Assembly: GCA_964626855.1 (NCBI GenBank)
Contig: CAZVKJ010000002.1
Coordinates: forward strand, 101,852 to 165,851
DNA: 64,000 nucleotides
Direction of reading: 5' to 3'
Source of the DNA: an uncultured Bacteroidales bacterium
GTDB taxonomy: Bacteria > Bacteroidota > Bacteroidia > Bacteroidales > CAIWKO01
In this document: positions 29,848 to 52,900 of the stretch, in pieces
How the letters are laid out: each line of letters begins with the position of its first letter
Numbering within the stretch: position 1 is the first letter of the stretch
Translations under genes and position numbers: made by a program
Notes under the pieces: generated by a model
What the model was told of the DNA's origin: nothing
Database searches by the model: none
The model's input: the letters and a program-made list of their open reading frames with translations, nothing else

Positions 29848-32800
29848 TTAATGCGCCAGTTTCAGAACCATGCATTTTGATTTGTCGGGACCTAAATAAT
29901 CAAAGCGCAATGTGTATATTCCTGCCGGTAAATTCTTCGACCGGAATATGACTGTGTGTTTTCCCGATGTTTGCGGTTCATTTAACAGTTCACTAACCCG
30001 TTCGCCGATTGCATTATATATATTAATTTTTACATCACCATTTTCAGGAAGATCATAACATAATGTTGTCTGATCATTAAATGGATTGGGATAAGCTGTA
30101 AACTCAAAACCGGCATCATTTTGATTGCCCTGAAACAAAACTTTTGGCATAATCAGATAAGCATCATCACTTTCTTCTCCATACATATTGCCAATTACGC
30201 CAGGACCTTCCAACGAGAAATCTGATAAATTCCTGCCGGACCCTGGTTTTGCCTGGAATCCGAAACGGATCAATTCCTCATTAGCTGTTACATCGAAATG
30301 TTTTGTTGTTGCAAAAACAACACGGATAATACCATCCTCATCAGTTACCAAAAGATCATTGTTATCAGCCAGTATTTCATTAAATGAAGGATTTATCTTT
30401 AAAGGAGCGTTCTGGTTTTCGATGCCGGGCATAGATACTCCTACCAACCTGAAATCTTTATCGGGATATTTCAGCTCAAGCCCCAGGGCCGAAAAATCTT
30501 TTACTTTGGTACTGATAAGCAGAGGTACTTCAAAATATGAAGGATCGCTTATTGTTGTGTAATCCTCAGAATTTACAACAATATTTTCCGGTAATGATTT
30601 CGCCAGGCTCCATGTAGTTGTCGAATCTCTGTACTTGGTACTTGCAGCATTGTAATCACCATAACAAATTGTTTTAAGTGTAATGTTCAGGTTTGAATTG
30701 GAAACGGTAACCACGGTATCAAAAGCGACCCAGTTGCCTCTTGGAAAATTTTTGGCAGGATCATATGGAGAACCTACCTTTGCCTTAATTCGTGCAACAT
30801 CTATAGCATTAATTGTGGAATTGTTGTCAACATTGGCCGCCTTTTTATATTTGGATGAAAAGCATCTTGATGGGTCAACCGTGGTGTCGCTGCCAATATA
30901 ATATTTTATCAGGGCCACATCAATTGCATTAACGTCGCTGCCGGTCTGCATTGTGTCGGGAGTGTACTTATCATATGACAATTTATAAGTTCCGTTTGAA
31001 ATATTTGAAAAAAGATAAGCTCCTGCAGCGTCGCTTGTATCCCTGGCTATTTCTGTACCCGATGGATAATTTTTTAGTATCACAATTACATGGTCGATGT
31101 CGTAAATAACAGAATTATATGTGGGAGGATTGGGGACAGGACTCCCCACATTTGCCTTGCCGGTATAACGTGTTTTTCCATTGATGACATAGCCGCTGCC
31201 GCAATTATTAACAGTAACAATTCTTGTTATTGTTGGTGATGGGGCGCTACAGCCATACGCATAAACCTGGATTGTTACCGTGCCGGAAAACCCAATCGTC
31301 CAAGTCATGACTCCAGTGGCTGAATCTATTATCCCTGCAGCAGAATTATTTATTGACCAATGAAACCCCATATTATTTGTCGCTGTAGTTGAGTATGTTG
31401 TTGTGGTATTGTTTGTCGGAGAGCAGACAGGTTCTGTTCCCGAGGATATGTTGATAGGCGAAGGAGGGGAGACTTCAGGTATTACGGTTACGTTAAACAC
31501 GGAAGTGGAAGCCGTACCGCAGGTGTTTGTTACAACACAATAAAATCCATTACTGGCAATCATAACCCCGGGGTTGTAAGTGCTGTTGGTAGCGCCATTG
31601 ACTAATCCCGATGAGGTTTTGTACCATTGGTAGGTATAGGCACCTGTTCCTCCAACCCCAACCGCGGTTAGTATTCCGGGGTTGGTTTTGTCACAGATGG
31701 GAGACGTCCCCCCGGTGATATTGGCTGATAAAACTGCAGAAACGGTTATGTTAACGACACTGCTGTTTGATGAAGTACAGGCATCGGACACGGCACAATA
31801 ATACCCTGAGCTTGATACAATATTTCCCGGGTTGTAAGTGCTGTTGGTTGCATTTGAAATTAATGTCGATGGTGTTTTATACCACTGATAGGTGTATGTG
31901 CCTGTTCCGCCCGATCCGGCAGCCTGAAGTGTTCCCGGATTTGTATTATAACAAATTGGCGAATTTCCGCCATTGATGGTAGCAATAACCGGAGTGGTTG
32001 TTGTTGCTGAATGCACTGACGTGGCAGGAGCATTACATCCCGTTGCCGTTGCTGTAATGGTAGATGTTCCGCTCCATCCGGGACTGTATGTTACAGCGCC
32101 CGTCGCAGGATCAATGGTGTTGCCGCCTGCAAGGCTTGTCGGATCCAGACTATAGGTAATATTGCTGCTGTTTGCGGCTGTGGCGGAATATGTCACGCTG
32201 CCGATGCCCTGGCATCGTGATGATGTTGGCCCCATAGAAAAAACAGGAATTCCAGCGGAAGGCGAAACGGTTAAACTGCAATTGGTTGTGGCTGTAATCC
32301 CGTTACCGTCCGTAATGGTAACAGTATATGTTGTGGTACCATTGGTTCCTGTAGGCGGATTTGCTGTAGGGTTAGTGCCCAGGCCACTTGACCATGAGTA
32401 TACCACTGAAGGATCAGCATTTGCCGGCACTGCAGTCAAAGTTACAGCATCTCCCTGGCAAACAGTAACATTTCCGCCGGTAATACTTACTGTAGGATCA
32501 GGCCCTGAAATGCCCGTAAACGCTGATATTACTCCGGCTGTAAGTGTTGCCCCTGCCGCAGTTAATGTGTTTGATCCTAAAAATGTATATTTTATCCAGG
32601 GATTGGTCATTTGATTAAAAATACCATTTAACTGGGCGCTTTTTATACTCGTTTCAGTTCCGTAAATATCAGCATTTACATAATTACCGGTAATTGTAGC
32701 AATGCAGGATGTAATGCCCGATTGAGTAACACTCCAGTAACGCCTGAGATAATTAATTGAGCTGTAATTGTCGGGATGTTTGATGTCATTTACTTTTATT

Positions 32801-33462
32801 CCAACATAGGCATTGCTAAATCCCGAACCAGAAGTAACATTTACCGTAATGGGTGAATACTCTGACGTTCCGGAGTTGTCGCCGACAGGAAATAAATACG
32901 AGCCTGTACCGGAAAAGTTTTTTCTCAATTCACCACCCTGGTTGGCAATAACCATTTTGCCGGCAGAAAAAGGGCTTCCGGCAACGGATGTGGCTGAGGT
33001 TGCCAATGTTAATATGCGTGTCGAAACATTGAAATTTCCCGTTGTAAGGGTTAATGTATTGTTGACATTAGCATCTATATTGCTTAGGGCAACACCATTG
33101 CTGGAATTATTTACTGTAAGGTTATAGAATGTTGTTAATGCGGTTCCGCTTATTGTTTGTAAAGAAGAACCATTAAATTCAACACTGCCCGTACCTGAAG
33201 AGAACACGGCATTATTTATCCAGTTGCCGGCCAGATAATAAGCACCGTTGCCACCGGCTGTGGCATTATTGGTAAAATTTCCGGTTATGGTCATCGTCCC
33301 GGAATTGTCCAAATTACCGGAAGATGCATTATCTGCATTTCCGTTTACTTTAACTATTCCTCCCGTTTTAATCGCGACAACAGCCCCGTTGTTGTAAAAT
33401 GTCTGGGATTGGACTGTTGTCACGGTAATTAAGAGAAATGCTAATAACAAATATTTTTTCAT
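29848..33462 (-). CDS. 1204-aa secreted adhesin-like protein with T9SS C-terminal sorting domain
   Basis: Signal peptide MKKYLLLAFLLITVTTVQSQ. Two Ig-like units carry GTGTYTYQWYKT / GTGAYTYQWYKT. Then a CarboxypepD_reg-like segment, dockerin-like loops (DVNAIDVALIKYY, VDNNSTINAIDVARIKAKV) and a cohesin-like segment (YFEVPLLISTKVKDFSALGLELKYPDKDFRLVGV). The T9SS tail reads FTAYPNPFNDQTTL...INIYNAIGERV...LPAGIYTLRF. Confidence 0.85.
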   Translation of the reverse strand: MKKYLLLAFLLITVTTVQSQTFYNNGAVVAIKTGGIVKVNGNADNASSGNLDNSGTMTITGNFTNNATAGGNGAYYLAGNWINNAVFSSGTGSVEFNGSSLQTISGTALTTFYNLTVNNSSNGVALSNIDANVNNTLTLTTGNFNVSTRILTLATSATSVAGSPFSAGKMVIANQGGELRKNFSGTGSYLFPVGDNSGTSEYSPITVNVTSGSGFSNAYVGIKVNDIKHPDNYSSINYLRRYWSVTQSGITSCIATITGNYVNADIYGTETSIKSAQLNGIFNQMTNPWIKYTFLGSNTLTAAGATLTAGVISAFTGISGPDPTVSITGGNVTVCQGDAVTLTAVPANADPSVVYSWSSGLGTNPTANPPTGTNGTTTYTVTITDGNGITATTNCSLTVSPSAGIPVFSMGPTSSRCQGIGSVTYSATAANSSNITYSLDPTSLAGGNTIDPATGAVTYSPGWSGTSTITATATGCNAPATSVHSATTTTPVIATINGGNSPICYNTNPGTLQAAGSGGTGTYTYQWYKTPSTLISNATNSTYNPGNIVSSSGYYCAVSDACTSSNSSVVNITVSAVLSANITGGTSPICDKTNPGILTAVGVGGTGAYTYQWYKTSSGLVNGATNSTYNPGVMIASNGFYCVVTNTCGTASTSVFNVTVIPEVSPPSPINISSGTEPVCSPTNNTTTTYSTTATNNMGFHWSINNSAAGIIDSATGVMTWTIGFSGTVTIQVYAYGCSAPSPTITRIVTVNNCGSGYVINGKTRYTGKANVGSPVPNPPTYNSVIYDIDHVIVILKNYPSGTEIARDTSDAAGAYLFSNISNGTYKLSYDKYTPDTMQTGSDVNAIDVALIKYYIGSDTTVDPSRCFSSKYKKAANVDNNSTINAIDVARIKAKVGSPYDPAKNFPRGNWVAFDTVVTVSNSNLNITLKTICYGDYNAASTKYRDSTTTWSLAKSLPENIVVNSEDYTTISDPSYFEVPLLISTKVKDFSALGLELKYPDKDFRLVGVSMPGIENQNAPLKINPSFNEILADNNDLLVTDEDGIIRVVFATTKHFDVTANEELIRFGFQAKPGSGRNLSDFSLEGPGVIGNMYGEESDDAYLIMPKVLFQGNQNDAGFEFTAYPNPFNDQTTLCYDLPENGDVKINIYNAIGERVSELLNEPQTSGKHTVIFRSKNLPAGIYTLRFDYLGPDKSKCMVLKLAH

Positions 33463-33473
33463 GCTGATAGCAA

Positions 33474-34943
33474 TTATTTGTTAATAGAATTCATTTCGGA
33501 TTGATTGAATTTTGATTTTGGAACAAGCAGTTTCCCCTTGCCTGTTTTAGGACATCCGTTATATATGCCCTTAGATTCGGGTTGTCCCCAGATTTCGGGA
33601 ATAATATATGTATCTGGTTTTTTCTTTGCGACTACTACCTTTTTAGCTTCTGGATATTTTTGCATATACATATCATTACGTTCGGCATATACTGTCCATG
33701 ACACTTTAGAGTTGGGGACTCCTCCTGCAATTACAAAACTTCCATCCTTGATTTCCTGTTTGATATACAATCCGGGGGCGGGGGCGCCTACCGGGGTTAA
33801 CTGATAAGAGAAGTTGATGTTGATCGCAGTAAAATAATCGGGAAGACTGATAAGTGCTTCGCCGTTATTATCAAGTTGGGTGTTTCCCCTGTATAAGTTT
33901 AACACTTCAGGAGATTCAATGGAAAAGTGTTTTAATATTTTATTTCCCGGATCAAGCGGATGATCAATCACAAATGCTTTAGTGCCAGATGCGCCAAAAT
34001 TCCCATTACTATATAATCCATATCCATAAGTGTAATCATTAGTTTCTCCCAAAACGCCGATAAATCCAACACCCCAGATACCAACATTGTTGTCAACAAG
34101 GCTGGCGCTTACATTTTGTCCATAAACGCCTGCGGCAGGGCCATCATCTGTTTCACCCCATACACCCACATAACCCTGGCCAATAGTTCCAACCGCATTA
34201 CCAAGAGAAGCTGTTCCGTGATTCAATCCGAACACACCAAACCCGGTCTCATAATTGGTTTCACCTACCGTGCCGTTAAATCCTTTACCCAAAACACCAT
34301 GTCCTCCTGTTGTACGCAGGTTGTTGCCAAAAATTCCGGCTTCGCCGGTTGCCGTTGATAAAATTTGTCCGCTCACGCCAAAAGCTTTACCACTTGAAGT
34401 TCCAAGAACGGCGGTGGTAGGGATTGGGGATCCGCCCACTGTACCATAGTTTGATGCAGTAGTTGCCTGCATGGCAGCATATTGCACACTGGTGGAAGTA
34501 TTGTCAGCCACAATGGAAGAACCATTACCGCTGTGTGACGATTTCAGGCCGATGGATAATGCATTGGCATCAGTAATGTTGACCGAACTTGTTCCGGTAA
34601 TTACTATATTTCTACCCAGGCCCGGGCCGCCGCAATCGTAAGCTTGCTGTAACGTACTACAGCCACCGCCACCACCCGTAATGGCGACCCATTGTGTCCC
34701 GTTAAAATACCAGAATTGTTGTAAAGAAGTGTCATACACAAGCAATCCGGTTGCGGGAGACGTGATCGCGGTTCTTTGAGCCGTAGTCATCCTGGGCACC
34801 AATATCCCTTTACTTGTTGATGTTAAATCAAGAAGTGATGAGTTGTCCGGAGTGTTTGTACCAATACCGACATTTTGTTGTGCAAAAATTTGTTGGTAAA
34901 AAACTACAATAAATGTAATAAAAATAAGAATAGCCTTTTTCAT
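33474..34943 (-). CDS. secreted Gly-rich repeat protein, fibre-like (489 aa), no T9SS tail
   Basis: Signal peptide, then the N-terminal motif NVGIGT...GILVPRMTTAQRTAITSPATGLLVYDT...QFWYFNGTQW. The core has recurring G[VI][FWY]G units. The C-terminal domain reads KAFVIDHPLDPGNKILKHFSIESPEVLNLYRG. It ends 11 nt upstream of the next gene. Confidence 0.75.
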   Translation of the reverse strand: MKKAILIFITFIVVFYQQIFAQQNVGIGTNTPDNSSLLDLTSTSKGILVPRMTTAQRTAITSPATGLLVYDTSLQQFWYFNGTQWVAITGGGGGCSTLQQAYDCGGPGLGRNIVITGTSSVNITDANALSIGLKSSHSGNGSSIVADNTSTSVQYAAMQATTASNYGTVGGSPIPTTAVLGTSSGKAFGVSGQILSTATGEAGIFGNNLRTTGGHGVLGKGFNGTVGETNYETGFGVFGLNHGTASLGNAVGTIGQGYVGVWGETDDGPAAGVYGQNVSASLVDNNVGIWGVGFIGVLGETNDYTYGYGLYSNGNFGASGTKAFVIDHPLDPGNKILKHFSIESPEVLNLYRGNTQLDNNGEALISLPDYFTAININFSYQLTPVGAPAPGLYIKQEIKDGSFVIAGGVPNSKVSWTVYAERNDMYMQKYPEAKKVVVAKKKPDTYIIPEIWGQPESKGIYNGCPKTGKGKLLVPKSKFNQSEMNSINK

Positions 34944-35247: not shown

Positions 35248-37389
35248 ATGAGAAAAAATATTATTGCCATTCGTGCCATTCTTGGCGGTTTTTCACTTTT
35301 GCAAAAAAAAGTATTGATTTTTTTATTTAAGAGTCTTGCGGTTTCCTTTATTCTTATTTGCCTTTTTGGCGCAAAGGGAAGTTATGCGGATACGCATACA
35401 TGGATTGGAACTGCTGCCTCAAGTGCATGGACAACAACAACGAACTGGTCTCCTACAGGTACGCCTGCTGCTGGAGATGCTGTAATTATTGGAGGGACAG
35501 CAACAACGATAATTACAGCGGTTCCTAGTATTTCACTTGTTTCAATGACCGTAAATTCAGGTGGAGGTGGAAGTGTTACCCTTCAGTCTTCATCTGCTGT
35601 AACGATAACCTTATCAGGGACAGGAAGCGGGGTACTTGTGATTAATAATAATTTAACGCTTGGACCCTATGTGAGTATTTCCAAAAGTAGCACATTAAGT
35701 GCAACTGGCTCTGTTGCCTCTGGTAAAACATTTACAGTTGGTAATGGTACAAATGCCAGCACTTTTTCATGGATTTCGGGAGGCAATTTCACGGTCAGCG
35801 GCTCTATGATTTGTTCAAATGCTTCAACAATAAATTTTACATATGCAGGGTCTCAGGTTATACCAAGCAATATTACTGTAAATTCAGGCGGCACTTTAGT
35901 ATTAGGTGGCAGCGGCATTAAATCCTGGAATAGCGGAATCAGTGTTACAATAAATGGAACATTACAATGGGCGGGGACAGCAACAACGGCATCAAGTGGC
36001 GTTGCACCTGGTTTTAATTCCGGTAGCACATTGTCTTTTGCAGGAACTTCCGCAATGACATTATCCTCTTATTATATATCTCTTTCAGAATCTACAACAA
36101 ATTTGGTGCTTAATGATGCAGCGGGATTGACGTTAGATGCCGACAGAACGTTTGTTAATTATACAGCAACATCTGGTAAACTATCCATAGGCGCAACAAC
36201 CCTTACACTTACGGGAACTATAAGTTCAATGTCAGCAACCAATTCTTTTACAGGATCGGCAAGTTCGAATTTAGTGATTAACGGAACCGGTGCTGCCGGT
36301 ACAATTTATTTTAACCAGACTACCCTGGGCACCACCAATCAGCTTAATAGTTTAACAATAAACAGAACTTCAAGCGGAACAGTAACGTTAGGTAACCCTT
36401 TAGTTATGGGGACTGGTGGTACACTTACCATGACTGCTGGCGAGCTCATATTGCCGTCATCGGCTGCCGAAGTCCTTACAATAAATGGGGCTGTAGCATA
36501 CACTGCGGGAACAATCCGTGGTAATACATCTGCCTATATGACCGTAGGCGGGACCGGCGATGCAGGAGGTGCCATATATTTTTCTGCATCGTATCAAAAT
36601 TTATCCAAACTTACCATCAACCGCTCATCTGGCGGTATTTTCAGGCTGGGAAGCGCACTTACCCTTAATTACTCTGGTACAAATGCCCTGACTTTGACAG
36701 ATGGAGTAATCAATTGTGGTAGTAATGTTCTTACCATAAACAGCGGAACCCTTCCCCGCATCAGCGGCGGCTCCGCATCATCATATGTTGCCGGACCTCT
36801 TGCTATTCAGGTTCCGGCCAATACCAGTGCAAAATCCATTACCTGGCCTGTCGGAAAAGGCGCATATCAGGCTTTTGCAACCCCGGTAACGACAACAAGT
36901 TCTGCCAGTCTGGCAATAATAAAAGTGGAGGCCTTCGATGCTAATTGCGGTGGAACTTTTAATGGATCGATGAGCGGAATAAATACTGATAATTACTGGA
37001 GCGCTTCAGTGACGGCTAATGCAACAAGCATAACCTCTTTTGACGTCCTTAGTTTAACAGATGATGATCCAACATTGACCTCCGGCAATGTTATTGGTTA
37101 TTGTGCCACAGCGGCCAGCGGAACGTATACCTCTTTAGGTGGAAGTGTTTCTGTGCCAACTGTTACTTCAACGATGGTTGCCCCTAATGCACTTGGCTAT
37201 TTTGTTATCGGAACAGCAAACAGCGATCCTCTTTGCGGTACATATAAAATAGGCCCCACAGGTGATTTTGCAACGGTTTCTGATGCTGTAGCCTCATTAA
37301 ATGCCCGCCCGGTAACCTGCGATGTTATTTTTGAATTGCAAAGTACATATACCGGATCGGGAGAAACATTTCCGATAAATATTTATTAG
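35248..37389 (+). CDS. N-terminal 713 codons (with signal peptide) of a giant surface protein, ending at an in-frame TAG
   Basis: A signal/anchor region is followed by a Thr/Ser/Gly-rich beta-type repeat region. It is in the same reading frame as 37411..48948, and only the TAG at 37387-37389 separates them. Confidence 0.8.
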   Translation: MRKNIIAIRAILGGFSLLQKKVLIFLFKSLAVSFILICLFGAKGSYADTHTWIGTAASSAWTTTTNWSPTGTPAAGDAVIIGGTATTIITAVPSISLVSMTVNSGGGGSVTLQSSSAVTITLSGTGSGVLVINNNLTLGPYVSISKSSTLSATGSVASGKTFTVGNGTNASTFSWISGGNFTVSGSMICSNASTINFTYAGSQVIPSNITVNSGGTLVLGGSGIKSWNSGISVTINGTLQWAGTATTASSGVAPGFNSGSTLSFAGTSAMTLSSYYISLSESTTNLVLNDAAGLTLDADRTFVNYTATSGKLSIGATTLTLTGTISSMSATNSFTGSASSNLVINGTGAAGTIYFNQTTLGTTNQLNSLTINRTSSGTVTLGNPLVMGTGGTLTMTAGELILPSSAAEVLTINGAVAYTAGTIRGNTSAYMTVGGTGDAGGAIYFSASYQNLSKLTINRSSGGIFRLGSALTLNYSGTNALTLTDGVINCGSNVLTINSGTLPRISGGSASSYVAGPLAIQVPANTSAKSITWPVGKGAYQAFATPVTTTSSASLAIIKVEAFDANCGGTFNGSMSGINTDNYWSASVTANATSITSFDVLSLTDDDPTLTSGNVIGYCATAASGTYTSLGGSVSVPTVTSTMVAPNALGYFVIGTANSDPLCGTYKIGPTGDFATVSDAVASLNARPVTCDVIFELQSTYTGSGETFPINIY

Positions 37390-37410: not shown

Positions 37411-40400
37411 GTGACATTTCGGCCTGAGTTAGGTGCGGGAATGCTTGTTACATCCGGTGATCCCGGCTCAGGAAATGCCCTGATAAAATTAACGGGCGTA
37501 GGTAATGCAACAGGATACATCATATTTGATGGAAGAGCCGGTGGTACGGGAAGTACAGTCGGATGGACAATAAGGAATACCAGGACAACATCAATAGTTG
37601 GCCCGGCTTTCCAGTTTACCAATGGTTGCGCTTACGATATTTTGCAGTATTGTCAGCTTGAAAGTTATAATACCACAGCTACCAGTGGCACAGTGTATCT
37701 TTATAATAGTTCTACCGGGCCGGCAAACAACCACCTGACTATTCAGAATTGTAATATCGGGCCTTACAGCACCTATTATCCTGTTAATGGTATTTGTGCA
37801 TACGGATATAGCACTACGTATCCAAACAGTTATATCAGTGTTCTGGACAATAATATCTATAATTTCCTACCGGGATCAACCGCTGTTGGAAGTGCTGTTT
37901 GTGTGACAGGCACAAGCACAAATACTAATTATGGCGATAACTGGACCATATCGGGGAACAGTATTTATAACAGCGTAACACAGGTTAACGGATATTATGT
38001 ATATCCTATTTATTTTATACCGGGGACCGGTTCAACAAACAATACCATTTCTAATAATTACATAGGGGGACAGTCTGCATTATGCGGCGGTACCGGCAGT
38101 CCCTGGGTATGTAAATCAACATCTTCTTCCGGTATTACCGTTCCAGCCTTTGCCGGGATGTTTATTAAAGCCGGATCTGCAACGATTACAGGTAATACCA
38201 TCAGTAATATTCAGATAAACAATACAAATCAGAACGGCCATGCTTTTGGAATAGATGTAGATGGCACATCGGGAAGTTCTGGCTTTATTATTACAGGAAA
38301 TACTATCGGGAATCCCAGCCCGTCAGGTAGCGCTGTGGGATTTCAAAATACCGGGGCAGCTGCGAATGGTGGAAGCGTTTGTGGAATTGTAAACCAGGCA
38401 GCGGGCAATATTACAATAGGTGCCGCAGGGTCAGGTAATGGTAATATCATTGCCAACCTTTCAAATGTGGGTTCAAGCGTCAATACTCCGGTTGCAGGGA
38501 TTGTTACTACTACAGGGGTTAATAGTATTGTGAATAATACAATTTTTAACCTTACTGCTGCGACACTTAATACTGCTACACAGGTGAACAGTATTCCTTT
38601 CGACGGATGTGTCGTTGGTATCCTTTCTTCTACTGCGGTAACGGGCCAGTTGAATATCAATGACAATACTATTTACAACCTGATAAGTTCTGGCACTTCT
38701 GCAGCAGCAACAAGGGCGGTCGGAATAAATGTTAATGGAATTCCGCCCTACGCTCTGGCTAATGGATCCCATTCTGTTGATGGTAATAAGATATATAATA
38801 TCTCAACTACAAATACAAATACATCTGCAATTATTGCCGGTATCAGGTTGTCGGGGTCCAGCAGTTCATCGGCGGTAAACTTTACCATCAGCAATAATAT
38901 GGTGATGCTGGGTTACCGCGGTGATGGGACCACAATAACCGGTTCGGCCCAAATATCCGGAATATTTGATAACTCAAGCGGTTATTCCGGAAATCCAACT
39001 TCATATGATAATAACATCAGGGTTTGGCATAACACTGTATATATAGGTGGAACAGGGGTTACAGGCGGAGCTGTGAATACGTATGCATTTTATAGGTATA
39101 ATACAAACTCCAGCCCGAAAAATGTTGAAAAGATTTACAATAACATATTCGTAAATGACAGGTCATATTCTGTAAGCGGAACCGGGTTTAACGCGGGAAT
39201 AGGACTGGACAATAACCTTACTTATTCACCCAATCTTTTAAGTACCGATTACAACCTGGTTTATGGAACAGGAGTGCAGTACCGATTCGGATATATTACA
39301 TCAACATCCTATGCCACAAAAGCAGCCTGGGTAGCAGCAAATGCTACATTTGATCCGAACAGCCAGACAACCAATCCCCAATTAATAGATCCAACCTCCA
39401 CCTCAGCGCCCGACCTGCATGTAAATACATCTGTTGTTACTCCCGTGGAAGGGGCAGGAACAGGAAGTTATACGATGACTTATGATTTTGATGGAGATAC
39501 CAGGGCTTCATTGACGCCTACAGATATTGTTGCCGATGCAGGAGATTTTCAGGGAGCCCCCAATATTTCCTATACTGCCCTGGCAAATACAAGCAGCCTT
39601 TCCAATGCACCTCATACAGCAACGATCACATCAGCAAATGGCATTAACGTTACATCTGGAACAAAGCCAAGAATTTATTTTAAGCGCACATATGAAGCAA
39701 ATACATTTGTTGATAATACCAATGCTACAGATGGATGGAAATATACTGAGGCAACAAACAGCTCTTCTCCGTTCACTTTTTTAATCGATTATTCTTTGCT
39801 GTATAACAGTGGTAGTATCCCTGTAGCAGCAGGTGATTACATCCAGTATTTTGTAGTAGCACAGGACAATAACGGAACACCTACCATTGGTATTAATTCT
39901 GGCGTATTTAATGCAACACCGTCAAGCGTGGATGATTATGCTAATATATTTCCTTTGGGTTCGCCGATCAACCAGTATTGGATATTACCTTCACAGGGTA
40001 GTTATACCATTGGTGTCACAGGCCGCCCGACAAACAATTACACATCCCTTACAAGAAACGATGGGTTCTTTGCGGGAATGGACGATCCTAATACACTTAT
40101 TTCCGGTGATATTACAATGAGCATAACAGCTGATATTTCTATTGAAGATGGCGCCAATGGCTTAAATCAATGGACAGAATCTCCACCAAACAATGTTTTT
40201 ACTGTTACTGTTCAGCCGGATGCGAGCGCCAACAGAAACGTATACGGTACTTATGCCGGTGGATTGTTCCGCCTGAACGGATGCGAAAGGGTAATATTCG
40301 ACGGAAGCAACGGTACCACCAGTAGGTATCTGACATTCTACAACAGCACTGCAGCTCAGCCAACATTTGTTTTTATCAACGATGCTACCGGCAATACACT

Positions 40401-43400
40401 GAATTATTGCAATATTTATAGCAGCAACACAAGTTCTTCCAGTGGAACAATTCTTTTCAGTACAGGAACATCGGCAGGAAATGATAATAATACAATAAGC
40501 AATTGTGATATTTATCAGGGATCCAGCGTTCCTTACAATGCCATTTATTCGCTTGGAAGTGCATCATACACAAATTCCGGAAATACGATAAAAGGTAATT
40601 TAATAAGAAATTTCACTAATTATGGTATTAATATATCCTCCACCGGTAATGGCGATGGTTGGACAATCGGTGGCGCCAATGCCCCGGACGGCAATAGTAT
40701 TTATAATGAATCTGCCAGAAGTACTGCGCTGGTTAATATTTATTTTGCGGCAGGCAGTAATCATACAATAAGGAATAACAGTATTTTCCATAATGCAGCA
40801 GCAAACACCAGTACATTTACAGGGATTCAGATAGCCGGCAGTGGTAATGGTATAACCATCAGGGATAATTATATAGGCGGCACTCAGGCACAATGTGGCG
40901 GAACAGCCTTATTAAGCAGCTATTCAGGAGCAGGCGCATTTATCGGAATTACTGCTGCTGTAGGAACAACAACCGATGCAGAAATTCATAATAATACAAT
41001 AAAAAATATTACCAACTCAGGAGCAGCATCGTCGTTCACGGGTATCGCTGTTACAGCAGGTATTGCAAATATTGGTACATCAGCAGGAAATACCATTGGA
41101 GATGTTTCTATTGCAAACAGCATCTCACTTTCGGGTTCCGGCGCAACGTCGCCCATAACGATCACCGGGGCGGGTAATGGCTCTGATATAAGCAACAATA
41201 CCATTGCCGGATTTACTACTTCTTCAAACAATGCCTTTGTTGGTATCACTCTCACCGTTGGGACAACAACCGCCACATCGGTACAGGGAAACACCATAAA
41301 GGAAATTACAATGAATGGTAATGTTGCCTCGTCTTTTAAAGGAATATATGTTACTGCCGGGAAAGTAAATATTGGTGATGTATCATCAAACAATATAGGT
41401 GATGCCAGTTTAACAGATTATAGCAGTATTACGTATGCCGGTACTTTAACCTGTTATGGTATTTATAGTGCGGCATCAGCAGCCTCGGTGATTTCAAATA
41501 ATTATATTGCAAATATCTATGCAAGCTATAATTCTTCTGGCACAGCTGTAATTCTATGCGGAATATATCATGTTACCAATGCCGTAGCTTTAACCATTAC
41601 TGGCAACACTATTAAATATCTCAAATCAAACTATGGTAATACTAATGCGCTGGGCGCAACTTCATCCGTTGAAGGAATTTCTGTCGCTACTTCTGCCGCC
41701 GGCAGCACAATATCTCAAAATACTATTCATACGCTTCAAAATACTTATGCAACAGGGGCAGCAAACCATATTGCAGGAATATATGCCAATTTGGCGACAT
41801 CAGGAACAAATATAGTCAGCAAAAATTTTGTTCATAGCTTAAAATCAACAAATGCTACTACTGCCGGTAGCTTATGCGGAATCTACCTGGCCGCAGGATT
41901 ATACACCTGCGATAATAATATGATACGCCTGGGCGTGGATGATGCGGGCGCCGATATTAATAACAATTATCTGATATATGGAATCTATCAGGCAAGCGCT
42001 GCGGTTAATTCAAATATTTATTTTAATTCGGTATATATAGGCGGCAGTGCAGTTGCTCCTGCTGGTGCCATCAATACTTATGGATTATTCCGCAACAATA
42101 CGATTGCAACAAATGTGAAAAATAATATTTTCATGAATGCCCGCTCTAACAATACAGGAACGGGGACACATTATAGTATTTCTATTTCGGCAATAACCGG
42201 GTATACCGGTGATAATAATCTTTTTTATACGCCCGGAACAGGCGGAAAAGTAGGTAAAGTGAGCACGACGGATTATGCCGACCTTACAGCATGGAAATCA
42301 GGTTCAACTCAGGACGCACTCAGTGTAAGCGGGGATCCTCATTTTTTGTATCCGGCTAATGATAATACAAGTTTAGACCTTCATATTGATGCTGCTTCCG
42401 GCACACAGGTCGAAAGCGGAGGTATTGAAATATCGGGAATTACATACGATTTTGATGCCGCAGGAACACGCCCCTCGGGCGGATATCCGCTTAGCGGTCA
42501 AACAAATGGAGGTGGCAATGCTCCTGATATAGGCGCCGATGAAGGCGATTTTGTCGGGGTTGATCTTACACCTCCAATGATTTCATACACCCCATTGAGC
42601 AGTTCGGTTGTCGCTACAGGCAGATCCTTTACTGATGTGGGCATAACTGACGCTTCAGGTGTAAATATAACCAATGGTACAAAATCAAGATGTTATTATA
42701 AAAAGTCAACCGATGCCAATACATACGCCGGCAATACCAGTTCTGACGATGGATGGAAGTACGTGGAGGCCAGCGGAACCACATCTCCGTTTAGTTTCTA
42801 CATAGATTATTCTATCCTTAACGGGGGATCGGTTGTTGCTAATGATATCATACAGTATTTTGTTGTGGCACAAGACCTGGCTCCTGCCATAAACGTTGGA
42901 ATTAATTCCGGGACATTTACATCCTATCCTGCAAGTGTTGATCTTGCCTCCGGCAATTTTCCGCTGACAGGAACAATAAATCAGTATACTATATTGCCTG
43001 GCGTCAATGCTGAGTATTATGTGGGAGCATCAAGCTGCAACGGGAATTCCCCGAATTATGCGACACTTACCGGAGCCTCCGGATTCTTTGCCTTTATGAA
43101 TACATCCGGCACATCAATGGTGATCGATAAGAATATTACAGTGTATATTACTTCAGATATTACCGAAACTGGTGTTAATGCATTAAATCAATGGACTGAG
43201 GATGGCAATGGACCATATACTCTTACCATTGTTCCTTGCGATGCTACCCTGAAAACGCTTTCGGGCAGTGTTTCAAGTAATGGACTAATTCCTATAAACG
43301 GCGCCGACAGAGTTATCTTTGATGGAAGATATGCAGGTTCCGGAAAATACCTGAAATTTAAAAACACATATGCAACAGCCGGTACGGCCGCTCCGACTTT

Positions 43401-46400
43401 TAAGCTTTATAATAATTCGACCTATAATACAATCGAATATTGCTATGTGGAAGGGCAACTGCAATATAGTGATACCTACAATCCGTCGAGTGGTGTTATT
43501 ATGCTGGGCACAAGTACGGCAGGCGGTGACGGCAATAGTTATAATACAGTATCAGACTGTGATGTTTATGGGGGCGGATCATCATGGTATGCTTCCACAT
43601 TAATTTATTCCTGTGGCCTTGCCGGAACACCCAATCATGATAATGCTATTTCAAATAACAATCTTTATAATTTCTGTTATGGGGGTGGCGGAACGACAAC
43701 AAGGGCGCACGCTATTAATATTACCGCAACAGGCAACGGAAGCAACTGGACCATTTCGGGAAACAGCATTTACAATACTTTTGTTAATGGCACCAATGTA
43801 CAAAGCGCAATAACATTCCTACCCGGCTCTTCATCAACCGGAAATATTATTTCAAATAACTGGATTGGCGGCAAAGCTCCTTTATGCGGAGCTGCCGGCA
43901 CACCATGGGAAAACAGTTATGATCCATATAACACAACAGAGACTATTTTATACGGGATGCAAATAAACGTAGGAACGATTACTATTGATGGAAATAATAT
44001 AACAAACATCAAAGCTTCTTCACCTGATTATACCGGTATTCAGTTGATAAAAATTGTAGGTTCGACGGTGGCTACAATTACAAATAATGTATTTGGAAGC
44101 GGCACAAACGGAACTCCGGATAATAGCAAAATCATTCAATGTTCGGGAGGTGCAGGCACATCATATGGCCCAGGGTATATTTATGGGATCTGGAACACGA
44201 GTAACACAACTTCAATGACTACATACGACAATAATGATTTTTATTATTTGTGGCAGAGTGGTGCGGGTTATGGCGGTTCAGTACAATGCATTGTTCACCA
44301 AACGGCTGGCCCGGCGACTATTACCAACAACCAAATTAACGGTCCGCAGGCTGTGGGTAGTGCTGATTATGGCGCAGGGTATAATAGTTTTGGTATTCGT
44401 GTTGAACCTACAGCATCTAACACTGGAAATATAATCAGAAATAATCGTGTTGCAGGTCCATATCTCAATAATACAAGTGCGCTTACCTATGAATCAGCCA
44501 ACTATGGAATACGGGTGTTTGTCAGTTCATATACAGTAAGTGGAACAATTGATAATAACGTGATCTGGGATATGCGCAATGCTGACCGCGCCGGTTATAC
44601 TGAAGGAATTTATATTTATTCAACTACAGGCGGCAACGGAAACTGGGATATCTATAACAATCAGATCACTCTGAAAAACAACGGAAGCACTTCAAATTGT
44701 GTGGGACTTTATGGTATTGATATCGCATTAAATTCAGCATCAACGACCACGATAAGGCACAACACTGTTTATATTGGCGGGTCTAATGGCGGGTCTCCTG
44801 TCGCCGGGCATGATTTTAGTTCATATTGTTACCTCCGCTTGCCCAATAGTTCGGGAACGGTGGTTGGCGATGCCGTTACTGTTCAGAACAATATTTTTAT
44901 TAATTCACGTTTAGTTGGTAATGGCTATGTTGCAGGGCATTTTGCAATAGCGAACCAGGGCACGTCAAACTATGCAACCAACTGGAATGTCAGCGATAAT
45001 AATTTCCTGTTTACAAATAATGGAACATATAACAAAATAGGTTGCTGGGGTTCAACAGCTCAGGCAACATTAGCAAACTGGCGCACCGCTTCATCAAAAG
45101 ATGCCAACAGCTATACTGCCACCGTCACCACGGGAGCTTCCAATTTTGCTTCCGGATTGCTCAACCCTGATAACTCATCATACCTGTTTAATAATCCTTT
45201 ATCTGATTTACATATTTCGATCAGCGACGGACAAAGCTATCAGTTTGTTGCCGACAGGGGCACAACAACTTCTATAACTACGGACTTTGACGGAGAGTCC
45301 AGGCCGATGGATGCTGCTCCTGATTTAGGCGCTGATGAGTTTACAGCAACTTGCACTAATCCTACCTTGTCGGGAGCTTCGCAGGCCGCCGAAGTATGTG
45401 GCAGTGGACCGGCAATCATAAATTTAACGGGACTTGTAGCCAGCAGCACTGACAATGCAATAGATTATACAATTAATGGAGTGCAGCAAACACAGGTCAC
45501 CGGTATTGATGCGGACGGATCGGGTAATGCCAGTTTTACAACCACATCACTGACAACCGGAAATAACGGCCACCAACTGGTGATTACAAAAATTACAAAT
45601 GGCGCCTGTTTTACTAATTTTTCACAAAGCGTTGTATTGCAGGTTACGGCAACTCCAACATTAACGGGGGCTTCGCAAGCATCTGCCGTTTGTGGCAGCG
45701 GCACAGCAACCATAAATATGACAGGCCTTGTCGCCAGCAGTACCGGTAATGCCATCGATTATACGATTAATGGTGTGCCACAAACACAGGTGACAGGTGT
45801 AAGCGCTGATGGTTCGGGTAATGCCAGCTTTACAACAACCTCACTGACCACGGGGAATAACGGCCAGCAATTAGTAATTACTGCGATCACAAACAACAGC
45901 TGTTCTTCTAATTTTTCACAAAGTGTTGTTTTGCAGGTATCAGCATTGCCAACTTTGACAGGCGCATCTCAGTCTGCAGTGGTTTGTGGTAGTGGTACCG
46001 CCACAATTGATATGACCGGCCTGGTTGCCGGCAGTACTGGCAATGCTATAGACTATACAATAAACAGTGTTCCGCAAACCCAGGTAACGGGAGTTAATGC
46101 TGACGGATCTGGTAATGCAAGTTTTGTAACTTCGGCTTTGACTACGGGAAATAACGGCCAGCAATTGGTTATTACAAAAATCACGAATGGCACCTGCTAT
46201 ACTGATTTTACCCAGTCTGTTGTTTTGCAGGTTGAAGTTTCACCAACCTTAACCGGGGCATCTCAGGCCTCATTGGTTTGCGGCAGTGGTGAGGCTACAA
46301 TAAACATGTCGGGTCTGGTGGCCGGCAGTACGGGTAATGCTATTGATTATACGATCAACGGCGTTCCACAAACACAAATCACCGGAATTAATGCAAATGG

Positions 46401-49251: not shown

Positions 49252-49839
49252 ATGCTGGCACTGACGTCTAAAATAAAAAATTTTTCGCGTTCAAATAAGA
49301 TTCCCGTTTTCTTTATTGAACTACTGTTGTTTTATCTTTTATGGAATTTTTTAGACGGATACCTGATTGCACACAGCCATTTATTTGACAGGATTTGGAT
49401 GGGTATGTACCATATACTTTTAAAGAGTGTGATGTTTATGAGTGTACTGATCACCAAAATCTTTACGGATGTACAAATCACAACCACTTACAGGCATATT
49501 ATACTTGGGGATTTTGGAAGTATAGGGATTTCAAATTACTGCCTTTGTGCAAATCTTATGTTTTTATTCGGGGCCTTTATTATTGCATATCCCGGAAAAT
49601 GGAAGATAAAGTTATGGTTTATACCCCTTGGCATTGTAATAATACATTTGTTGAATACATTTAGAATTTCAGCCTTATGCCTGTTGAAAATTTATTCGCC
49701 GGAAACGCTGGAAATAAATCATCATTATATTTTTAATATTATTCTTTACGCCTTTGTTTTTATTATGTGGATGATTTGGATTACCCGTTTATCGGGTGAG
49801 GGAATATTAAAAAGGAAACTCTCAGAAGGAAAAGAATAA
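49252..49839 (+). CDS. xrtF: exosortase family protein, XrtF-like (195 aa)
   Basis: Small polytopic protein with the ordered exosortase/archaeosortase triad context. The Cys is in GISNYCLCANLMFLFGAFIIAYPG. The Asn/Arg motif is IIHLLNTFRISALCLL. The His is in SPETLEINHHYIFNIILYAFVF. Size and phylum context fit the XrtF class. The call is from memory of the family pattern, not a search. Confidence 0.62.
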   Translation: MLALTSKIKNFSRSNKIPVFFIELLLFYLLWNFLDGYLIAHSHLFDRIWMGMYHILLKSVMFMSVLITKIFTDVQITTTYRHIILGDFGSIGISNYCLCANLMFLFGAFIIAYPGKWKIKLWFIPLGIVIIHLLNTFRISALCLLKIYSPETLEINHHYIFNIILYAFVFIMWMIWITRLSGEGILKRKLSEGKE

Positions 49840-49912: not shown

Positions 49913-52900
49913 TCAATGCACAAGTTTTAATACCATGCAGTTTGATTTTTCAGCCCCGAGAAAATCAAGGCGGAAGGTATATATACCCGCCGGCAGGTCT
50001 TTTGGTGAGAAAGCAATAGTATGCGTTCCTCCGGTTTGATTTTCATTTTGAAGTTCGCTTACAAGTTCTCCTGTTGCATTATAAATATTTATCGTTACCA
50101 TTCCGTTTTCCGGGATGTTGTAAGTTAATTTTACATTGTCATCAAATGGATTGGGGTAAGCTGTAAAGTCAAAACCATTTTCGCTGTTACTGGCTTGAAA
50201 GAATATTTTGGGCATAAGCAGGTATGTTCCATCGTTTTCTTCACCAAACCGGTTTGCGGCAACACCTGTACCAGATAGCGAAAAATTGATCTCGCCTGGC
50301 TCAGGATCTTTTAATGTGCGGAATCCGAGAACAAGAATCTGATCATTAGGGTTCACATCAAAATGGTGTGTAGTGGCATAAACAACCCGTATAACTCCAT
50401 TCTCATCAGTAACAAGTAAATCATTATCACTTGTCATTATTTCATCCAGCGAAGGATTGATTTTTATTTCCGGGCTGTTTTTACCTGTACCACTAACATA
50501 AGCAGAAATAAGCCTGAAATCTGATTCGGGATATTTAGCTTCAAGGCCGAGTGCCGAAAAATCATCTATTTTTGAACTTATCCTCAATGGTACTTCAAAA
50601 TATGAAGGATTGGTGATCACCTGGTATTCATCAGATGAAACAATAAAATCCTGTGGCAATGATTTAAGCCCGCTCCAGTTTGTGGTAGAATCGCGGTATT
50701 TGGTGCTTGAAGCATTAAAATCACCATAGCTGATCGTTTTAAGCGTGATGCTTAAATTAGAACCGGCAACAGTTACCATTGTATCCAGAGCTGCCCAGTT
50801 GCCTTTTGGGAAATTTTTCGTAACATTATATGGTGCTCCGATTTTCGCCTTTATTCTGGCAATATCAACGGCATTAATAGACGTGTTATTATCAACACTT
50901 CCTGCATTTTTATATTTTGCAGAGAAATTTCTGGACGGATCCACCATGGTGTCTACACCAATATAATATTTCAACAGCGCTATATCAACAGCGTTGACGT
51001 CGTTACACCATTGCATGGTATCTGCTGCATATTTATCATATGAAAGGATATAATTTCCGTCGGCAACATTAGTAAACTGATAATTCCCCTGTAAATCACT
51101 GGTATCTCTTGCCACTTCTGTTCCCGCGGGATAGTTTTTCAGGATGACCACTACATTATCGATATCATAAATAACAGCATTGTAGGTAGGTGGATTTGGC
51201 ACCGTGCCCACATTGGCTTTACCGGTATAACGTGTTTTTCCGCTGATGACATGGCCACTGCCTCCCACGTAAACCGTAACCACATCCGTGGCTGTGCAAT
51301 TGTTATTACTAACGGTCAGGGTGTAGGTTGTTGTTATTGATGGTGATGCTGTTGGCTGGGCAATGGCCGGATTATTTAATCCCGAAGTGGGTTGCCAGCT
51401 AATGGTTCCGGGCCCGTTATCGGGATCGCCAATAGAAACAGGGGCGCCTGTATATGTTGCAGATGTCCCCGCTTCGGCTATGGGAACCGCATAAACCTGC
51501 ACGTCCTTTATCGTTGCCGAAGATGCTGCACAATCATAACCATTGGAATAGTTTACTGTTACTGTTTGTAATCCAACGGTGGTCCAGGATACAGTAATAG
51601 TGTTAGTGCCTGTTCCCGCTGTGATATTTCCTCCGGCAGAAACATTCCAGGTATATCCCGTCATGGAACTTTCTGTGGTGTATGTTACGCCTGTGGCGCC
51701 TGCACACACGGAGGGAAGCCCTGTAATTGTTGGAACGGGCCTGGGGTTTACTGTAATAGTATATGCTGACGGTGTCCCTGTGCAGTTGTTTACTGTTGGT
51801 GTTACCGTAATGGTAGCAATGATGGGCGAAGTTCCTGTATTAGTTGCAGTAAACGAAGGAATATTTCCGGTGCCGCTGAAAGCCAGTCCCAATGCCGAGT
51901 TTGAGTTAGTCCACGTATAGGTGCCTCCTGCCGGGGTGCTTAAAAAGTTTGTAGCAGTGACAGTGCCGCCACTACAAACAGTTATATTCGATGGAACGGT
52001 TACGGTTGGTGTCGGATTAACGGTAATTACAAAATAAACCGGTGATCCCTGGCAGCCATTCAATGTTGGTGTGACAAGAATCGTAGCTAAAATTGGTGAT
52101 GTGCCCGTATTATGGGCTGTAAAAGAAGCAATGCTTCCGGTACCGCTCGCGGCCAGGCCTATGGTAGTATTGGAATTGGTCCATGAAAATGTTGCGCCCG
52201 CAGGTGTACTGGTGAAGTTTACCGCCGGGACAATCCCGTTATTACAAACAGTTATGTTGGATGGGGCCGTGACTACCGGGGTAGGTTTTACAGTAATTGT
52301 ATACGAGGAAGGTGTCCCCACACAACTGTTAACTGTGGGTGTAACGGTAATGGTGGCAGATATTGAGGCGGTACCCGTATTAGTTGCTGTGAAAGAGGGA
52401 ATATTTCCGCTACCACTTGAAGTCAAGCCGATGGCTGTATTTGAATTTGTCCAGGAAAACGTGCCGCCGGCCGGAGTGCTGGTAAAGGATGTGGCAGACA
52501 CCGTGCTTCCATTACAAACGCTGATGTTTGAAGGAACAGTTACCGTTGGTGTGGGTTTGACAGTAATCGTATACGAGGAAGAGGTTCCCACACAACTATT
52601 CACTGTCGGAGTAACAGTTAGGGTTGCTGTAATATTTGAAGTTCCTGAATTGGTTGCGGTAAATGAAGGAACATTGCCTGTGCCGCTTGATGTCAAACCA
52701 ATTGCAGTATTTGAATTCGTCCAGGAAAATGTGCCGCCGGCCGGAGTGCTGGTAAAGGATGTGGCAGACACCATGCCTCCATTACAAACGCTGATGTTTG
52801 AAGGAACAGTTACCGTTGGTGTGGGTTTGACAGTAATCGTATACGAGGAAGAGGTTCCCACACAACTATTCACTGTCGGAGTAACAGTTAGGGTTGCTGT

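Follow-up and report, generated by a model that had tools for sequence, protein, structure and literature searches.

Cohesin–dockerin assembly counts as a hallmark of the cellulosomes of Gram-positive bacteria, and Bacteroidota are thought to degrade polymers through polysaccharide utilization loci (PULs) and enzymes secreted individually through type IX secretion (the T9SS). In Porphyromonas gingivalis, cargo with a type A C-terminal domain (CTD) is translocated by the T9SS, after which its CTD is removed and the protein becomes attached to the outer membrane. In the putative cellulosome-like complex of Candidatus Stygibacter (Cloacimonadota), dockerin enzymes and the CTD-bearing scaffoldin are separate proteins (PMC8542988). 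The KLIKK proteases, encoded by six genes, have a conserved 30-residue motif and an 86-residue CTD which flank a variable region of 140–160 residues without recognisable domains (PMC4404884). Outside cellulosomes, cohesin and dockerin are found in one polypeptide in archaea and bacteria, including proteins of anaerobic methanotrophic (ANME) archaea with one dockerin and several cohesins (Peer et al. 2009, cited in PMC9012536; PMC9012536). Here we analyse a stretch of 64,000 nucleotides, called the window throughout, from an uncultured Bacteroidales bacterium (assembly GCA_964626855.1, contig CAZVKJ010000002.1, positions 101,852 to 165,851 of the forward strand), in which two secreted proteins, A and B, end in the same C-terminal cassette of about 450 residues. 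The cassette has a conserved architecture that joins a dockerin, a cohesin-fold domain and a T9SS sorting domain, has expanded into paralogues with unrelated cargoes, and co-occurs with cohesins borne on other T9SS proteins.

The two genes and the limits of the shared tail, in window positions, are:

29848..33462, minus strand: protein A, 1204 aa; signal peptide, beta-rich/Ig_7 cargo and C-terminal cassette
49913..55933, minus strand: protein B, 2006 aa; signal peptide, lysyl endopeptidase-like S1 protease, PKD-like repeats and C-terminal cassette
29851..31233, minus strand: cassette copy A, 461 aa, protein A residues 744-1204; coordinates checked by translation
49916..51295, minus strand: cassette copy B, 460 aa, protein B residues 1547-2006

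BLASTP aligns residues 744-1204 of A with residues 1547-2006 of B (63% identical, 79% positives, only one gap, of one residue; E = 0), and gives no other significant segment pair between A and B outside the cassette; the N-terminal parts are therefore unrelated. This bears out a preliminary description of the same DNA, which had read collinear tails of about 450 residues, roughly two-thirds identical, on proteins with unrelated N-termini. Its limits for the tails were slightly short, the similarity beginning 11 residues further upstream (31233 and 51295, not 31200 and 51265), and all the motifs that it quoted (ISGKTRYTGKANVG, DVNAIDVALIKYYIG, VDNNSTINAIDVARIKAKVG, YFEVPL..FSALGLE and CMVLKL[AV]H) were found. 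Protein B, named there as a protease, matches lysyl endopeptidase (PDB 4nsy_A, E 3e-42), PKD-like repeats coming next, but the name 'adhesin' for protein A was a guess only: Ig_7 is its sole domain match, it has no solved relative, and the search assigned no function to its cargo. The signal peptides, read by eye, are MKKYLLLAFLLITVTTVQSQ and MIMKKLLFIVFLFIYGITVGYSQ; each ends in Q or has Q next, as is usual in Bacteroidota.

The window holds exactly two copies of the cassette by tblastn, 68.8% identical as DNA. Synonymous sites are saturated between them (pS, the proportion of synonymous differences, 0.71), the nonsynonymous distance dN amounts to 0.26, and no stretch of identical nucleotides exceeds 22 nt; with dS saturated, dN/dS lies well under 1. 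Copies A and B are thus old paralogues under purifying selection, with no recent duplication or conversion tract, and the same pS and run length led us to reject a recent duplication, gene conversion or an assembly artefact as the source of the pair.

Counting the cassette more widely, as the preliminary description had proposed, gave 83 distinct genes in 8 related Bacteroidales metagenome-assembled genomes (MAGs; 30, 14, 14, 12, 5, 5, 2 and 1 genes). These 83 are the genes recovered from retrieved loci, four genomes being best sampled (12–30 genes) and the other four contributing 1–5 each. All homologues come from uncultured Bacteroidales MAGs, several of which carry digester-type isolate names; a scan of GTDB species representatives gave 94 matches, and a profile hidden Markov model (HMM) search of 1.84 billion representatives gave 111 clusters at E<=1e-30, about 75 of them full-length cassettes. 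In the full-length hits the cassette always lies about 90 residues from the C-terminus, and that search also returned a second tier of collinear distant relatives, likewise ending in a T9SS CTD. Mean cassette identity is 0.62 within genomes and 0.58 between them, all segments are conserved about equally among the 83 paralogues, and their N-terminal edge is sharply defined. The cassette forms a large and old family of paralogues under purifying selection. NCBIfam has no model for it and no curated Pfam or NCBIfam model spans the whole of it; for such proteins, annotation at present goes no further than 'T9SS type A sorting domain-containing' or 'hypothetical'.

Two side observations concern what precedes the cassette. 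An extra domain of about 75 residues (consensus AEAG..TYTG.PV.IG...GPG.ISW.P..GL..P..AQP.ASP..TT.YTLTV) lies directly upstream of it in 37 of 76 paralogues, including B (51296..51520, minus strand) and not A. Minimal members of about 520 residues consist of a signal peptide, a motif of about 50 residues without a Pfam family (REVISTGGDFQQNS.GS.SFTIGE.VVETF...LTQGFQQ) and the cassette (L018, L020, L021, L022, P0002, P0004, P0011, P0012 and P0017; four genes in one genome).

When Pfam HMMs were run on both tails, Dockerin_1 was recovered in copy A and Por_Secre_tail in both copies, whereas Cohesin and CarboxypepD_reg stayed below threshold or gave no match. The reading of the cassette as four domains nevertheless proved largely right, with refinements that concern the insertion of the dockerin, its first calcium loop and the cohesin. 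Residues are numbered here from cassette residue 1, which is protein A residue 744. An AlphaFold2 (AF2) model of the cassette, built from an alignment of 39 family sequences (predicted local distance difference test, pLDDT, 71.9; predicted template-modelling score, pTM, 0.59), predicts, from N to C, strands (15-88), three helices (103-154), two further strands (173-188), a stretch of low confidence (189-215), a sandwich (219-367) and the CTD sandwich (377-460). The sandwich and dockerin at the N-terminal end of this order comprise:

30958..31194, minus strand: copy A sandwich, five N-terminal strands, cassette residues 14-92; AF2 strands with pLDDT ~80
30664..30759, minus strand: copy A NFPRGNW motif and last two sandwich strands, cassette residues 159-190
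51023..51256, minus strand: copy B sandwich, N-terminal part; SdrD_B 26.2 bits, below cut-off
50729..50824, minus strand: copy B NFPKGNW motif and closing sandwich strands, by alignment to copy A
30760..30957, minus strand: copy A dockerin-like F-hand pair, cassette residues 93-158; loop 2 NVDNNSTINAID
50825..51022, minus strand: copy B dockerin-like F-hand pair; Dockerin_1 20.0 bits; loop 2 SVDNNTSINAVD

The first segment had been called CarboxypepD_reg-like. Its Pfam scores are below threshold in both copies, for CarboxypepD_reg (PF13620; 22.4 bits in A and 17.7 in B, against 32.3) as for SdrD_B (27.3 and 26.2, against 29.7), and the SpaA score is also slightly under threshold, but the CnaB/transthyretin-like fold behind the call is upheld by AF2 and Foldseek. 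A model of the N-terminal half alone, poor overall (pLDDT 55.7), matched SdrD B domains, UafA and CnaB2 in Foldseek with probability 1.0 and E-values of 1e-4 to 1e-3. In the AF2 prediction five strands precede and two follow the dockerin (pLDDT ~70-87), consistent with a seven-stranded prealbumin-like fold, and strands 173-177 and 182-188 keep their confidence when the half is modelled alone. Deleting the dockerin in silico from copy A extends the CarboxypepD_reg alignment from profile positions 16-53 to 16-81 of 82. Together, the strands after the helices and the longer alignment lead us to read the first two segments as one unit. The dockerin, which the preliminary description had placed as a separate piece after the sandwich, is present there, but sandwich strands 173-188 resume behind it, and in the models it appears inserted before the last two strands of a seven-stranded CnaB/transthyretin-like sandwich.

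The dockerin itself had been described as two Ca-loop/helix pieces, and much of that holds: the repeats VNAIDVALIKYYIG and INAIDVARIKAKVG are 9/14 identical to each other in both copies, the second loop is canonical, and copy A, at 29.6 bits, exceeds the Pfam gathering threshold (GA) of Dockerin_1 (PF00404, 22.9). The first loop is non-canonical, however, and copy B falls below the threshold at 20.0 bits. Dockerin_1 matches 30/39 family members at E<=1, its match starting at profile position 9, so that the start of loop 1 is missed. Copy A is laid out as a non-canonical loop 1, a helix, a linker helix, a canonical loop 2 and a helix, and in the AF2 model helices span 103-114 and 143-154, a shorter one lying between them. 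Loop 2 (N-V-D-N-N-x-x-I-N-A-I-D) keeps its ligands almost throughout the 83 paralogues, with N/D in 82 at position 1, D in 81 at 3, N/S in 81 at 5, N in 76 at 9 and D in all 83 at 12. Loop 1 (D93-T-M-Q-x-G-N-x-V-N-A-I-D105) is conserved over a non-canonical 13-residue span, with T, Q and G/C at positions 1, 3 and 5, N/D at 9 in 74/83 and D at 12 in 83/83. At least one calcium site, in loop 2, is predicted for the F-hand pair. D105 and D145 are invariant or nearly so across the paralogues, the helix-surface residues R148 and K152 are conserved both there and in the distant relatives, and the distant relatives carry a textbook D-x-N-x-D-G-x-x-N-x-x-D loop. The positions that confer recognition in classical dockerins are conserved among the 83, and the two repeats carry the same residues there (A-I at 10/11 and K at 17), which suggests, as far as sequence can tell, one shared dockerin specificity. 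Foldseek gave no convincing three-dimensional dockerin match for the model of the N-terminal half, the best dockerin-related structure being 5k39_B (E 0.013).

Between the sandwich and the third domain runs a linker which is the most invariant stretch of the cassette:

30595..30663, minus strand: copy A near-invariant linker YGDYNAASTKYRDSTTTWSLAKS, containing a conserved D-S-[LATV] O-glycosylation sequon
50660..50728, minus strand: copy B near-invariant linker YGDFNASSTKYRDSTTNWSGLKS

Its consensus is YGDYNASS.KYRDS..W..K, with G192, D193, W208 and K212 in 83/83 paralogues, and it is kept in the distant relatives too, though its AF2 pLDDT is <50. The motif D-[ST]-[AILVMT] is the Bacteroidota O-glycosylation sequon (PMC8550257). 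It occurs at cassette residues 93, 116, 172 and 203 in 83, 70, 53 and 75 of the 83 paralogues, respectively, the chance rate being ~0.004 per site; the copy A sequons lie within 30595..30957 and those of copy B at equivalent positions. One of them is the invariant D-T-M that opens the non-canonical dockerin loop 1, and another lies within the AF2-disordered linker. A role of D-Y-N-A-S in N-glycosylation was set aside, N being replaced by D in 32/83 copies.

The third domain follows the linker:

30130..30579, minus strand: copy A divergent cohesin-fold sandwich, cassette residues 219-368
50195..50644, minus strand: copy B divergent cohesin-fold domain, by homology to copy A

It had been described as cohesin-like, and Pfam does not support that for the window copies, neither of which matches Cohesin (PF00963, GA 24.1) even at E<=10; 4/39 family members match at E<=1, and one of them, P0021, which is 54% identical to A, scores 25.4 bits, above the threshold. 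The cohesin call draws support from other evidence. The AF2 sandwich 219-367 has block-mean pLDDT mostly of 80-90, with two blocks at 65-69, and among the top 50 Foldseek matches listed from the PDB, cohesins are the only single-domain matches with a target-normalised TM-score (TMt) >0.5, at E ~1e-5 (CaCohA2 6kgf_A, 0.69, and 6kgc_A, 0.72; A. cellulolyticus ScaB Coh6 5nrm_A, 0.70; C. cellulolyticum 2vn6_A, 0.57). The predicted segment superposes on these solved cohesins, consistent with a nine-stranded jelly roll. Position supplies the strongest evidence. Collinear with the cassette are tails in related genomes that run sandwich–dockerin–FPGNKLW–GDxNNSW–canonical cohesin–CTD, and hhalign of the whole cassette against these canonical-cohesin tails gives 96.3% (E 2e-9, 346 columns). 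When a deep profile of the cohesin segment, made from the family plus its distant collinear relatives, is compared with the canonical cohesin of collinear 'g2' tails, hhalign returns 79.6% (E 1.5e-5); the tandem cohesins of the lineage reach 32% (E 4.8e-4) and negative controls 0.2%. Shallow alignments give only 1-7% against canonical cohesins, and against the tandem cohesins 1%, no better than the negative controls. PDB chains searched with one cassette, with the family profile and with the deeper profile of the cohesin gave nothing apart from the CTD, and no cohesin, and a word-indexed homologue search with the cohesin profile returned 5 family fragments only. Since collinear tails hold a canonical cohesin at the same position, the third segment is best called a divergent cohesin.

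The cassette closes with the sorting domain, its last 85 residues:

29851..30105, minus strand: copy A type A T9SS sorting domain, ending KSKCMVLKLAH; Por_Secre_tail 36.1 bits
49916..50170, minus strand: copy B type A T9SS sorting domain, ending KSNCMVLKLVH; Por_Secre_tail 40.1 bits

Both copies exceed the GA of Por_Secre_tail (PF18962, 27), confirming the T9SS tail named in the preliminary description, and copy B scores 30.6 bits with TIGR04183 against a cut-off of 23.

The cargoes carried by the family were compared with Pfam for 48 complete cases, in which 37 families were matched and 25 were listed. Ig_7 was found in 12, PKD in 10, Cohesin in 9 (best E 1e-41), Peptidase_M14 in 5 and Peptidase_M4 in 3, with Peptidase_C1, Amidase_2, CUB and others among the further families. 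Peptidases, Ig/PKD and CUB domains dominate the 25 families listed, which include no glycoside hydrolase or carbohydrate-binding module (CBM). Single-linkage clustering of the cargoes was uninformative, common Ig/PKD repeats having fused nearly everything. Eleven members of the family, spread over 6 of the 8 genomes, bear 3-4 canonical cohesins in tandem. Related MAGs combine such multi-cohesin, scaffoldin-like proteins with many dockerin-bearing cassette proteins, 12-30 of the latter in each of the four best-sampled genomes. Six-frame scans of the loci also revealed mini-anchors of about 255 residues, which consist of nothing but a signal peptide, a single canonical cohesin and a T9SS CTD. 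In five loci of five MAGs a mini-anchor gene comes directly downstream of a cassette gene, and both domains are above the Pfam thresholds in 3/3 of those scanned:

L055:4250-5011, mini-anchor
L057:4199-4966, mini-anchor
L059:1990-2757, mini-anchor
L007:6961-7734, mini-anchor
L071:3658-4398, mini-anchor

By analogy with cellulosomes, the mini-anchors look like a T9SS equivalent of the single-cohesin anchoring scaffoldin. Larger proteins encoded by neighbouring genes end in Dockerin–Cohesin–CTD.

Our preferred model, to which we give an even chance, is that the cassette is a lineage-specific T9SS display and assembly tail whose dockerin plugs into cohesins of the same lineage. If the cassette proteins behave as type A CTD cargo does in P. 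gingivalis, the CTD would drive passage through the T9SS after Sec export, and would then be removed, the new C-terminus being tied to the outer membrane. The cohesin-fold domain would thus be membrane-proximal, carrying the dockerin-bearing sandwich on top and, furthest out, the cargo. As in known cohesin–dockerin biology, the calcium-loaded dockerin would bind a cohesin on a neighbouring T9SS-anchored protein. Predicted receptors are most likely the canonical cohesins of the scaffoldin-like paralogues (3-4 each) and of the mini-anchors, with the cohesin of the cassette itself as a possible further receptor. This would yield a multi-protein coat bound to the cell, in which peptidases and adhesin-like proteins abound and whose logic is cellulosome-like, with T9SS anchoring and mostly non-carbohydrate cargo. 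Several points weigh against this model. The first calcium loop is non-canonical, the copy B dockerin is under the Pfam threshold, and the AF2 confidence of the dockerin region is only low to moderate. A canonical cohesin was not found in the 64-kb window, and the receptor proteins are seen only in related MAGs, in which the cassettes are 50-64% identical. Dockerin and cohesin would both sit on proteins tied to one membrane, an unusual arrangement for such a pair that poses a question of geometry, and the host T9SS might release the cassette cargoes instead of cleaving and anchoring them.

A scaffold-free variant, put forward in the preliminary description and considered unlikely here, would have the cassette complement itself, the dockerin of one protein binding the cassette cohesin of its neighbour so that any member could chain or cross-link with any other. 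Both modules are present in all 83 paralogues under similar constraint, and the uniformity of the dockerin recognition-type positions is what an any-with-any interaction would predict; the best-conserved cohesin stretches (SALGLEL and DLLVTD..GVIRVVYATT) align with strands of the dockerin-binding face, which is suggestive only. However, the cassette cohesin has diverged far from the canonical cohesins of the same genomes, as the shallow hhalign comparisons indicate, and such divergence means that it could have a different ligand; the lineage also retains cohesin-only anchors and multi-cohesin proteins, which would be superfluous in a system without scaffolds. The constant presence of dockerin and cohesin in cis at a fixed spacing also fits an intramolecular clasp, in which the dockerin would fold onto its own cohesin-fold domain to give a rigid, Ca-stabilised stalk and no intermolecular assembly. 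Successive blocks of the dockerin have pLDDT 75/62/51/58/77/68 in the full-cassette model, against 50/50/47/52/49/39 when the N-terminal half is modelled alone, as contact with the C-terminal half would produce, and the pTM of 0.59, reached by a chain of four parts, points to a degree of fixed geometry between domains. The difference in pLDDT may, however, stem from the differing alignments behind the two models, and a clasp leaves the cohesin-only neighbours unexplained; we hold it to be quite unlikely.

As a null model, the cassette could also be an inert extension of the secretion signal, a possibly glycosylated spacer or an aid to secretion or folding in which dockerin and cohesin are relics without partners. 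There are precedents for such an arrangement, in the shared C-terminal extensions of unrelated T9SS proteases (KLIKK, Tannerella forsythia; PMC4404884) and in the many non-cellulosomal dockerin- and cohesin-like modules that have no known partner (PMC9012536), and the four conserved O-glycosylation sequons and the degenerate first calcium loop would suit it. Yet about 370 residues are uniformly constrained, the calcium ligands, R148 and K152 are kept in 83 old paralogues and in distant relatives, and canonical cohesins sit on T9SS-anchored proteins in the same genomes, often encoded by the adjacent gene, so that we regard a purely passive tail as improbable. Returning to assembly through lineage cohesins, a broader proposal, which we put forward as no more than tentative, is that an uncultured clade of anaerobic-digester Bacteroidales has built a full cohesin–dockerin system on the T9SS: about 30 surface proteins per cell, mostly peptidases and adhesin-like proteins, would each bear both dockerin and cohesin, scaffoldins and cohesin-only anchors would share their secretion signal, and the whole would yield a cross-linked, Ca-dependent proteolytic coat or a cell–cell adhesion layer, a protein-directed 'cellulosome' in a Gram-negative phylum.

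Other genes of the window lie beside those of proteins A and B. A 489-aa secreted glycine-rich protein (33474..34943, minus strand), without a Pfam or NCBIfam match, ends 11 bp upstream of protein A. Its homologues stand directly upstream of orthologues of A in L079 (74% identity) and L032 (60%), so that it forms a conserved gene pair with protein A, and the two genes are probably an operon. A 195-aa exosortase-family membrane protein (49252..49839, plus strand) is convergent with protein B, 73 bp from its 3' end; its best match, XrtX, scores 124 bits against a curated cut-off of 170, and XrtY/XrtF come next. Between these lie a 713-aa open reading frame without a family match (35248..37389) and, just downstream of it, the gene for a giant 3845-aa protein (37411..48948, plus strand) with beta-helix-like repeats, seven tandem repeats of about 90 residues (TLTGASQA..VCGSG.ATIN..IDYTING.PQTQVTG) and a weak T9SS tail (23.9 bits, below the GA of 27). 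An 852-aa T9SS cargo without the cassette (56172..58730, minus strand; Por_Secre_tail 46 bits) has a weak match to a purple acid phosphatase N-domain, and related repeats are present in L064.

A literature search of incomplete coverage found no description of the cassette or of a T9SS-linked cohesin–dockerin system in Bacteroidales. If our model is true, it would represent a new mode of organising the outer-membrane surface and a natural plug-and-display system for Gram-negatives. The cassette is also a testable case of surface-protein repertoires diversifying through cargo swaps on a constant base.

The likeness to the cellulosomes of Clostridia and Ruminococcus (PF00404/PF00963) lies in the duplicated F-hand dockerin with a canonical calcium loop and in the cohesin-fold jelly roll, and extends to the lineage as a whole, which has multi-cohesin scaffoldin-like proteins, single-cohesin anchors and many dockerin-bearing proteins per genome. 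Unlike cellulosomes, which are anchored by SLH domains (S-layer homology) or by sortase, the cassette would anchor by a T9SS type A CTD; its dockerin is embedded in a CnaB-like sandwich, always paired with its own divergent cohesin, and has a non-canonical loop 1; and its host is a Gram-negative Bacteroidales whose 25 listed cargo families hold no glycoside hydrolase or CBM. With the non-cellulosomal proteins of archaea and bacteria, the cassette proteins share the presence of both modules on surface proteins, outside cellulose degradation; for those proteins no fixed cassette, T9SS signal or dockerin-in-sandwich arrangement is reported, and their cohesins are recognisable by Pfam (PMC9012536). 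As in the KLIKK system, unrelated T9SS proteases of different catalytic classes share a C-terminal region, the cassette ending in the motif LK[LM][IV]H, but all of its ~450 residues are conserved, the dockerin and cohesin folds are recognisable, and dozens of cargoes, not all of them proteases, carry it. Finally, in contrast to the separate proteins of Candidatus Stygibacter, the cassette unites dockerin, cohesin and CTD in one conserved 450-aa unit, present in up to 30 copies per genome.

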